Positions 84 through 54,326 of a stretch of DNA of 64,000 bases are shown here, piece by piece; positions within the stretch are counted from its first letter, which is position 1; every line of letters begins with the position of its first letter. The stretch is from NCBI GenBank assembly GCA_964188305.1, contig OZ076889.1. One strand, 5' to 3'. A model generated the notes under the pieces. The model ran no database searches. It saw only the letters and a list, made by a program, of their open reading frames with translations, and was not told the origin of the DNA. Origin of the DNA: Podarcis bocagei (taxonomy: Eukaryota). The position numbers and the translations under genes were made by a program.

Positions 84-575
84 TGTCAGGGACTGGGCAG
101 AGGAGGAATGGTGGAGACCGCCTCCCCAGACTGACCCTTCCAGAGAAGAAGGAGACGGTTCAGAATTACAACAGGGGGTTGAGGGAGGTCACAGCTCAGA
201 GGCAGATGAGGGGGAAAGCTGGGAAATAATGGGAGAGGAGGAGGAGGAAGAAGAGGCAACAGGGAAGAGACAGCTGATGGACTCAGTGTCTTTAGAAAGC
301 ATGCTAGAACCCTCACTCCCAGAAGCCGGCAGTCATTGAAAGTAGGAGAGCAGAGAGCTCAGAGGCAGAAGGCACAGCTCAGCCACCATAGAGATGAATC
401 ATAATAGGAGACAGAGGGGGTGCAGTTTCACTCAGAGCGATACCATTACTCCAAGAGACTGCATTTCTAAGCCTCTCTCTGTGAATATTGAATAAAATTC
501 ATTGGTAAGAACTGTCCTTGTCTTATCCATTCCTGGCAACCCACCGTGGGGGGTTGGATCCTCTGACGCCTGACA
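84..575 (+). mobile_element. Solo LTR (LTR-A), probably Gypsy/Metaviridae-type
   Basis: TGTCAGG...CCTGACA inverted termini; perfect 5-bp TSD CAGAG (79-83, 576-580); AATAAA at 491-496. Confidence 0.88.
85..404 (+). pseudogene. ATG-less acidic/basic reading frame inside LTR-A U3, one frameshift near 310
   Basis: Open from LTR base 2 (VRDWAEEEWW...SWEIMGEEEEEEE...SLESMLEP), continuing after a 1-nt shift as LTPRSRQSLKVGEQRAQR...*; homologous at protein level to the frame at 53628-53990. Confidence 0.6.
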
Positions 576-53566: not shown

Positions 53567-53626
53567 TTTTAATATATATTTTATAGTCAGACCAGTAGTC
53601 CATATATCTTAGTAAAGTTTGCATTG

Positions 53627-54129
53627 TGCCAGGGAATGCTCTGAATCAGAGGACTGGGGAATGCAATCTCAGGCAGATCAGATCCTCTTTGAAGAGGAGT
53701 TGGAGGGGGAAGAACCGCCTCGCCCTGGTCTCCAGCAGTTTCAGAAACAGGGAGAGACACAAGACACCGAGCAGCTTAGAGAAGAGTTGCCTAGCTATGA
53801 GATAATGGAAAGAGAAACAGAAGGGAGGGAACAGCCAGCAGAGACATCATTAGAGAGTGTGGGAGACCCTCCCTCCCCAAGAACTAGGAGGTCTGACCGT
53901 ATTAGAGAACAAAGAATGCAGAGAGGAGGAGGAACTTCCTGTTTGCGGCCAGGATGTCGCAAGCGACAGAAGGGGGAGGATTTAGAGTAGCCAACTGCTC
54001 TCCTTGTGGAGGGATGTGGATTGTTGCTTGCAAGCAGATGAGTGAATAAAAAGGTCTATAAAATATAAAGTGCTCATTAATTCTGGTCTTTGAATTTCCG
54101 AAGGGGGGGGGGAGTCTCCACACCTGACA
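53627..54129 (+). mobile_element. Solo LTR (LTR-B), related to LTR-A
   Basis: TGCCAGG...CCTGACA; 5-bp TSD CATTG/TATTG; AATAAA 54045-54050; inserted in a SINE. Confidence 0.85.
53628..53990 (+). other. Uninterrupted 120-codon frame in LTR-B U3, without an initiating ATG at its 5' end
   Basis: Open from LTR base 2; acidic region, SYEIM, then SLESVGDPPSPRTRRSDRIREQRMQR. Confidence 0.65.
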
Positions 54130-54326
54130 TATTGATTAGCAATGGCTCTTGAGGATGTCAGGCAAGCAACATTCCCAGACCTTCCTGGAGATGCCAAAGA
54201 GCAAACCTAAGACTTGCTGGTGCAAAACAAGAATGTCCTACCTCTGAGCAACAGAGAATGCCAGATTGTGAAAGCAGAATCTCTGCCATGGCATGAAAGT
54301 CACTCCTTTGTAAATTGATAGGCCAT

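Follow-up and report, generated by a model that had tools for sequence, protein, structure and literature searches.

Lizard Ty3/Gypsy chromoviruses whose integrase reading frame runs into the U3 of the LTR and carries a short block under purifying selection

Reading frames that overlap the U3 of a long terminal repeat (LTR) are familiar from retroviruses, in which lentiviral nef and MMTV sag encode separate proteins made from spliced RNAs. In plants, extension of a retrotransposon ORF into the 3′ LTR is known from chromoviruses. The ORF of CRM group A extends in this way, and the available part of the source describes its LTR-encoded C-terminus as a putative targeting domain, with a CR motif replacing the chromodomain (PMC3059260). 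Outside the CRM clade, the accessible text on the Beta vulgaris chromoviruses Bingo1-4 and Bingo7 likewise reports an ORF extending into the flanking LTR, and gives neither a selection test nor a function for this extension (PMC3605345). Sushi-type chromoviruses combine the Ty3/Gypsy domain order with a C-terminal chromodomain and a self-priming primer-binding site (PBS), the last being a hallmark of the Tf1/sushi type according to the part of the literature at hand (PMC6317226).

The lizard elements described here share these three features with Sushi. In contrast to CRM group A, which has the CR motif and tRNA-Met priming, they keep a chromodomain upstream of the polypurine tract (PPT), as do the plant Bingo elements, and they add a long selected tail. 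Like the nef and sag ORFs, the lizard frame codes over PPT and U3; unlike them, it is almost certainly the end of the integrase reading frame. The lizard LTR ends, TGTCA..TGACA, resemble the Sushi att motif TGTYANR/CNTNACA in the accessible part of PMC3601003. In this part of the paper, which models Sushi LTRs, the terms 'ORF' and 'open reading frame' do not occur, and the available portion of a centromere atlas preprint (10.64898/2026.09.17.752431) holds nothing on an LTR-encoded tail. The preliminary description of this locus knew of no account of such a frame for squamate LTR retrotransposons. Its novelty holds insofar as we found no vertebrate LTR-encoded integrase tail in the open literature (subscription papers on vertebrate chromoviruses, outside this scope, may mention an extension), whereas the plant chromoviruses provide a precedent.

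We analysed a stretch of 64,000 nucleotides from Podarcis bocagei (assembly GCA_964188305.1, contig OZ076889.1), hereafter the window, in which the following features were located.

84..575, + strand: solo LTR-A, Ty3/Gypsy chromovirus family, subfamily A1; TG...CA ends, target site duplication (TSD) CAGAG (79-83, 576-580)
85..404, + strand: relic integrase C-terminal tail frame in the U3 of LTR-A, broken; the downstream phase stops at 402-404
491..496, + strand: AATAAA, likely polyadenylation signal of LTR-A, judged by position
53627..54129, + strand: solo LTR-B, subfamily B1; TG...CA ends, TSD CATTG/TATTG (53622-53626, 54130-54134) with one mismatch
53628..53990, + strand: relic integrase C-terminal tail frame in the U3 of LTR-B, 120 codons open, without a start codon
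53715..53770 (limits approximate), + strand: LTR-B segment in another phase than its sister copies, between two offsetting indels private to the window copy
54045..54050, + strand: AATAAA, likely polyadenylation signal of LTR-B, judged by position

Blastn within the window found no nucleotide match between LTR-A and LTR-B, and their TSDs differ. This bears out their earlier description as independent solo LTR insertions; the families themselves are not independent inventions but relatives within a single lineage. Both are multi-copy, with 3029 (A) and 323 (B) first-look candidates in the genome. The 40 candidates scored for each showed about 83-88% identity to the window copy for A and 75-86% for B, and the copies, like the chromodomain matches described below, are spread over many large contigs. 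Elsewhere in the genome, A-like LTRs lie upstream of a PBS and gag or downstream of a chromodomain, and B-like LTRs follow a chromodomain and PPT in three loci (L227, L226 and L323).

Both frames had been reported as open from LTR base 2. The LTR-B frame is indeed open for 120 codons and that of LTR-A, from base 85, for 84. Compared with all five unbroken sister copies examined (5/5), the LTR-A frame moves by one base somewhere from 304 to 319. From about 53715 to 53770, the window copy of B is out of phase with 4/4 sister copies. Owing to these two offsetting indels, its frame is unbroken partly by luck, and part of its peptide is therefore not that of the family. The window copies are thus decaying relics, A frameshifted and B holding offsetting indels.

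Among the genome copies examined, neighbouring stretches included, we found none of A or B that was intact. The flanks of the first 60 LTR loci held no internal sequence in common, pattern searches with PPT plus LTR-A or LTR-B start returned no copy with internal sequence upstream, and a genome search with a guessed primer site yielded no 5′ LTR with PBS for B. For A, a guessed self-primer site led to A-like 5′ LTRs followed by such a site and gag, and their internal pieces led to the 3′ ends. At these ends, the frame of the integrase chromodomain passes the PPT and enters both A-like and B-like repeats at LTR base 2. A chromodomain lies directly upstream of A-type (L308, L309, L330) and B-type (L304, L305, L323) LTRs. 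In L227, a reverse transcriptase-RNase H-integrase-chromodomain (RT-RH-IN-chromodomain) sequence continues in frame into the LTR, stop-free between chromodomain and LTR; this LTR matches B (4-452, 67%, E 8e-25), while its start resembles A. L226 and L323 also enter a B-like LTR in frame, the former with one stop in the tract. The A-type loci L309 and L330 run in frame into LTR-A for 37 codons (A match 1-219, 77%, E 8e-45) and about 56 codons (A match 1-157, 80%), respectively, while L308 has a one-base shift at its junction. Every junction copy of A and B is decayed, with stops or shifts present.

The phase relation was counted in 30 loci matching the integrase end of L227. A strict rule left 14 distinct junctions, after exclusion of 13 loci without PPT and LTR start by this rule, one without an anchor and two duplicates. 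Chromodomain and LTR frame were in phase at 11/14 scorable junctions and out of phase at 3/14 (p 7e-4 against an expectation of 1/3). Chromodomain, PPT and LTR thus form a single frame in the A-type loci L309 and L330, in the B-type loci L227/L304, L226/L305 and L323, and in the young families described below. This agrees with the earlier proposal that an ORF crosses the PPT into the 3′ LTR and that the frame represents its C-terminal part. As a separate observation, a region at G000:C2:7.81-7.92 Mb (L165-L167, L192-L198, L201-L206) contains an A2 element with an internal deletion, duplicated to six copies; at least one of these adjoins sequence whose translation we take to resemble a vomeronasal (V2R) receptor exon.

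The A and B families are Ty3/Gypsy chromoviruses of the Tf1/sushi type. The RT-RH-IN order was read by tblastn in the B-like L227 and L226 and by Pfam in a young family C, and the internal sequence of A was recovered as separate pieces, gag and protease after the 5′ LTR and the chromodomain before the 3′ LTR. The PBS is complementary to the element's own LTR over 14 nt in an A2 copy (L185) and over 10 nt in families C and E; in the decayed L186 and L223, this complementarity is only 7 nt. In a tree of integrase ends (117 columns, 36 rows, two short pieces dropped, drawn open), A and B group weakly (87/84), apart from C.

A Pfam Chromo search of the genome, in which 150 of 4606 candidates were scored, was dominated in its scored matches by the young family C. 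In the two copies that were read completely, the paired LTRs are 99.7% and 100% identical, and each copy contains one ORF of 1558 or 1564 codons, in which Pfam recognized gag, protease, RT, RNase H, integrase, SH3 and chromodomain, and which ends in a 109-codon U3 tail entered at LTR base 2. A read-through of about 100 codons is also seen in family D, with LTR identity of 99.3%, and in family E, with 97.4%. Based on the common phase at 11/14 junctions together with these intact young families, we conclude, with very high confidence, that the frame in U3 represents the C-terminal tail of the integrase ORF, and not a separate accessory gene. Several peculiarities of the young elements were noted in passing. 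In L223:2830-8414, a young D element is inserted within gag of an A-like element; between its chromodomain and PPT, family D has an additional acidic stretch in which FxGF motifs are repeated; and in family E (L238:6297-6715) the frame extends past the primer-site complement, covering part of R plus U3.

The preliminary description had allowed for either a long integrase tail or a separate accessory protein. The latter, comparable to nef, sag or bel, would come from a spliced RNA or from one with an internal start. Family C does have an ATG at the second codon of the LTR frame, and in the RNA runs read depth over the distal U3 tail exceeds that over the integrase, although solo LTRs could explain this difference. 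On the other hand, every intact element that was read joins the frame to the chromodomain, the LTR start of A and B lacks a start codon, and three RNA runs, at low depth, list no joints. The accessory protein is accordingly very improbable, and of the two options the integrase tail stands. The RNA reads come from a related organism and cover the integrase end and tail of C at low depth; in one library, the internal part of C is covered on a single strand. They suggest transcription, not translation, of a C relative. No matching run on record as RNA was found in the indexed-run search.

The G-runs before the 3′ LTR of family C are a source of variation. One-base shifts that cut or alter the tail were present in 14/27 young copies (set L082-L109), caused either by slippage in reverse transcription or by assembly error; run X1 also holds a contig with one such deletion, at a depth of about 11%. 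These shifts count against the tail being indispensable.

In UniRef, the same layout was found in one Podarcis muralis protein and two Anolis proteins. A search of 1.8 billion proteins returned mostly gene-model fusions. The database models P0122 and P0128, for example, begin at the ATG of the tail frame in the 5′ LTR of family C and are fused to gag; both are likely annotation artefacts. Many fish and frog relatives have a tail of fewer than 60 residues, and most of the fish and frog proteins compared end within about 55 residues of the chromodomain. The long tail is therefore not needed by the clade as a whole. Some fish relatives are similar to the lizard elements in reading briefly beyond a PPT-like G-run, whereas the lizard families add an LTR-encoded tail of 100-120 codons that comprises an acidic spacer and a basic block under selection. 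Four Labeo rohita proteins (P0015, P0019, P0021, P0023) end about 20 residues past a PPT-like Gly run, all with an SPE[FY] motif at this end; they may represent a short version of the same read-through, with the LTR boundary placed from the protein only.

The tail has a recurrent layout, with 22-23 D/E in the first ~75 residues and 6-7 K/R in the following 24. Its landmarks in the window copies are the following.

217..231, + strand: S[WY]EIM motif in A
289..365, + strand: conserved 26-codon block in A, Ser/Pro and then basic, with the break inside
53793..53807, + strand: S[WY]EIM motif in B
53847..53924, + strand: conserved 26-codon block in B, with nearly all of the selection signal and the sole predicted helix of the tail
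53886..53903, + strand: RRSxRI motif in B, which resembles the HMGN RRSAR core in sequence

With the codon at the break treated as X, the blocks of A and B are identical at 13/25 residues, 9/13 of which use a different codon; the earlier figures of 14/26 and 10/14 agree once this codon is counted. Nucleotide identity by codon position is 15, 18 and 10 of 25. Between A and B subfamilies, 14-18/26 block residues are identical at a pS of 0.79-0.89, at which synonymous sites are near-saturated.

Selection was measured in four subfamilies of natural copies (A1 30, A2 30, B1 22 and B2 30 copies). Because multiple alignments slipped phase in the purine-rich repeats, unbroken natural copies were used as coordinates, and counts were made against the commonest codon of each column. 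In the base-2 frame, a stop column first appears at codon 107 in A1, 106 in A2 and 118 in both B1 and B2, and the five other frames stop sooner. Between subfamilies, dN/dS of this frame is 0.41 (A1/A2, p 0.019) and 0.32 (B1/B2, p 0.0008), compared with 0.89-1.65 in the other plus frames, and downstream of the stop there is no significant dN/dS signal between subfamilies. The comparison of subfamilies suggested in the preliminary description thus came out as expected for a coding frame. The antisense frame in register also gives low values (0.58 and 0.28); it shares the wobble position, contains 2-4 stop columns and was rejected as a gene.

Single-copy changes served as the neutral yardstick, which CpG decay blurs at arginine codons. 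Over the whole frame, the ratio of synonymous to replacement changes is 22:20 between subfamilies vs 139:487 among single-copy changes (p 5e-5). In the 26-codon block it is 13:1 vs 42:117 (p 1e-6), with changes by codon position of 1/1/9 (A1/A2) and 3/2/10 (B1/B2). The block was chosen by A-B resemblance, of which the A1/A2 and B1/B2 contrasts are independent. In the acidic upstream ~70 codons, the synonymous excess is not significant (8:16 vs 89:339, p 0.2), and the other two plus frames show none (odds ratios 0.99 and 0.45). Among the young families, dN/dS of the tail is 0.46 in C (two intact copies, p 0.045), compared with 0.12 in the rest of gag-pol, and 0.44 in D (two copies), the latter not significant (p 0.13). 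Over the whole frame, with dN/dS of 0.32-0.46, selection is therefore moderate; it is strong in the 26-codon block alone, while the acidic part of the tail is kept open only.

Purifying selection has acted on the progenitor replicating lineages, concentrated in the 26-codon block, and inserted copies decay. The purifying selection claimed earlier thus exists between subfamilies and is strong in the block; it is moderate overall and does not act on the window copies. The B copy, open for 120 codons, might by itself suggest that the host had co-opted the solo-LTR frames of the window and that they are selected at these loci. This is extremely improbable considering that the A copy is frameshifted and the B copy holds two offsetting indels, that single-copy changes (139 synonymous to 487 replacement or stop) look like those of control frames, and that among copies beginning at TG just 3/17 of B1 and 7/26 of A1 keep at least 100 open codons.

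The same data bear on a passive read-through, in which a purine-rich U3 is merely poor in stops and the conservation reflects promoter DNA elements. Such an account would fit the upstream 70 codons, near neutral except for the absence of stops, the shift at the PPT in about half of the young C copies, and the position of the block shortly upstream of the inferred transcription start. However, changes in the block fall at third positions, 13:1 synonymous, a pattern which constraint at the DNA level would not yield, and both remaining plus frames contain stops and lack a synonymous excess. The codon-position pattern largely refutes the passive read-through, which we regard as very unlikely.

Pfam matched no family in the tails. 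AlphaFold2 applied to the tail of a B sister copy (L003) gave a mean pLDDT of 61.5 and predicted a single helix, residues 83-98, within the block. The RRSAR core of HMGN2 (residues 22-26) is described, in the available part of the source, as binding the acidic patch (PMC12487698), and the tails of C, Anolis elements and B resemble the HMGN/Dsup motif (RRSARLSA, an arginine anchor on the H2A-H2B acidic patch) over 5-6 residues, a likeness of sequence. The family C tail ends in RRSARL and the Anolis elements in RRSARI. An exact RRSxR[IL] occurs in 7/22 B1, 2/30 B2, 0/30 A1 and 0/30 A2 copies; when residues expected from CpG decay are allowed, these counts rise to 17/22 for B1 and 20/30 for B2 and stay at 0 for A1 and A2. 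HMGN proteins show no homology to the tails, and the motif likeness is missing in A, D and E: RRSxR[LI] was absent from A (0/60 copies), from the D and E tails and from the long tails of database relatives (0/76, many of them gene-model fusions). The common feature is therefore a basic cluster and not an exact motif. CpG decay has affected this region, with an exact SPxxRR kept in no A1 copy.

Two further loci showed similar frames. The upstream flank of L032, on the minus strand, has a 277-codon open frame, acidic and Ser-rich, that ends in TP..RR.....EQR like A, B and D, and probably represents another LTR family of the same kind. The B-like 3′ LTR of L226 (G000:C10:3723500-3733400, minus strand) contains a nested solo LTR from a different family, and this solo LTR too has an acidic frame, with a basic SP..RR motif at its end.

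These motifs leave two ways to understand the block on the same integrase tail. It might act on nucleic acid or in the particle (RNA or cDNA binding, multimerisation, processing), as the acidic spacer and Arg-rich cluster that the families have in common, with no single exact motif, and the lack of RRSxR in A would allow. Against this, the acidic residues of the block (EQR motif) are as well conserved as its arginines, which suggests a shaped protein surface, and lacertid family C has the RRSAR[LI] ending, but not the spacer, in common with Anolis. We consider a nucleic-acid or particle role unlikely. An integrase tail whose basic block serves as a chromatin-binding or nuclear-import signal is, as a joint reading, the one we hold to be probable; for the chromatin or nuclear role of the basic block taken singly, the evidence leans in favour.

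The U3 forms the 3′ end of retrotransposon genomic RNA, and reverse transcription copies it to the 5′ LTR; the tail would therefore be made as part of the polyprotein. In the proposed mechanism, it would be translated on the integrase within this polyprotein, reverse transcription would place the tail-coding U3 in both LTRs, and LTR-LTR recombination would leave the frame in solo LTRs as a start-less decaying relic. In the protein, a disordered acidic and Pro-rich spacer behind the chromodomain may present the short Arg-rich helix, which could act as a second integrase handle on chromatin or on an importin. When the B block was modelled in complex with lizard H2A-H2B, the median score was 0.33 against a mark of 0.34, a value that weighs neither for nor against binding. 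A more specific idea is that the LTR of squamate chromoviruses came to encode a second chromatin reader, in which a long acidic tether carries an HMGN-like arginine anchor; it is tentative and seems rather doubtful at present.

To our knowledge, what steers the integration of vertebrate chromoviruses is largely unknown. The 26-residue selected block, situated behind the chromodomain and inside the LTR, is a defined candidate for such steering. Start-less tail frames can seed false gene models, as in P0122 and P0128. The U3 of these elements is promoter and coding sequence at once; solo LTRs therefore record the evolution of the integrase tail even where full-length copies are gone. If the tail should prove to be a second chromatin reader, the integrase would be a bivalent nucleosome binder, recognizing methyl-lysine and the acidic patch, that steers integration in parallel to the plant CR motif, and thousands of solo LTRs would record the sequence history of this reader.
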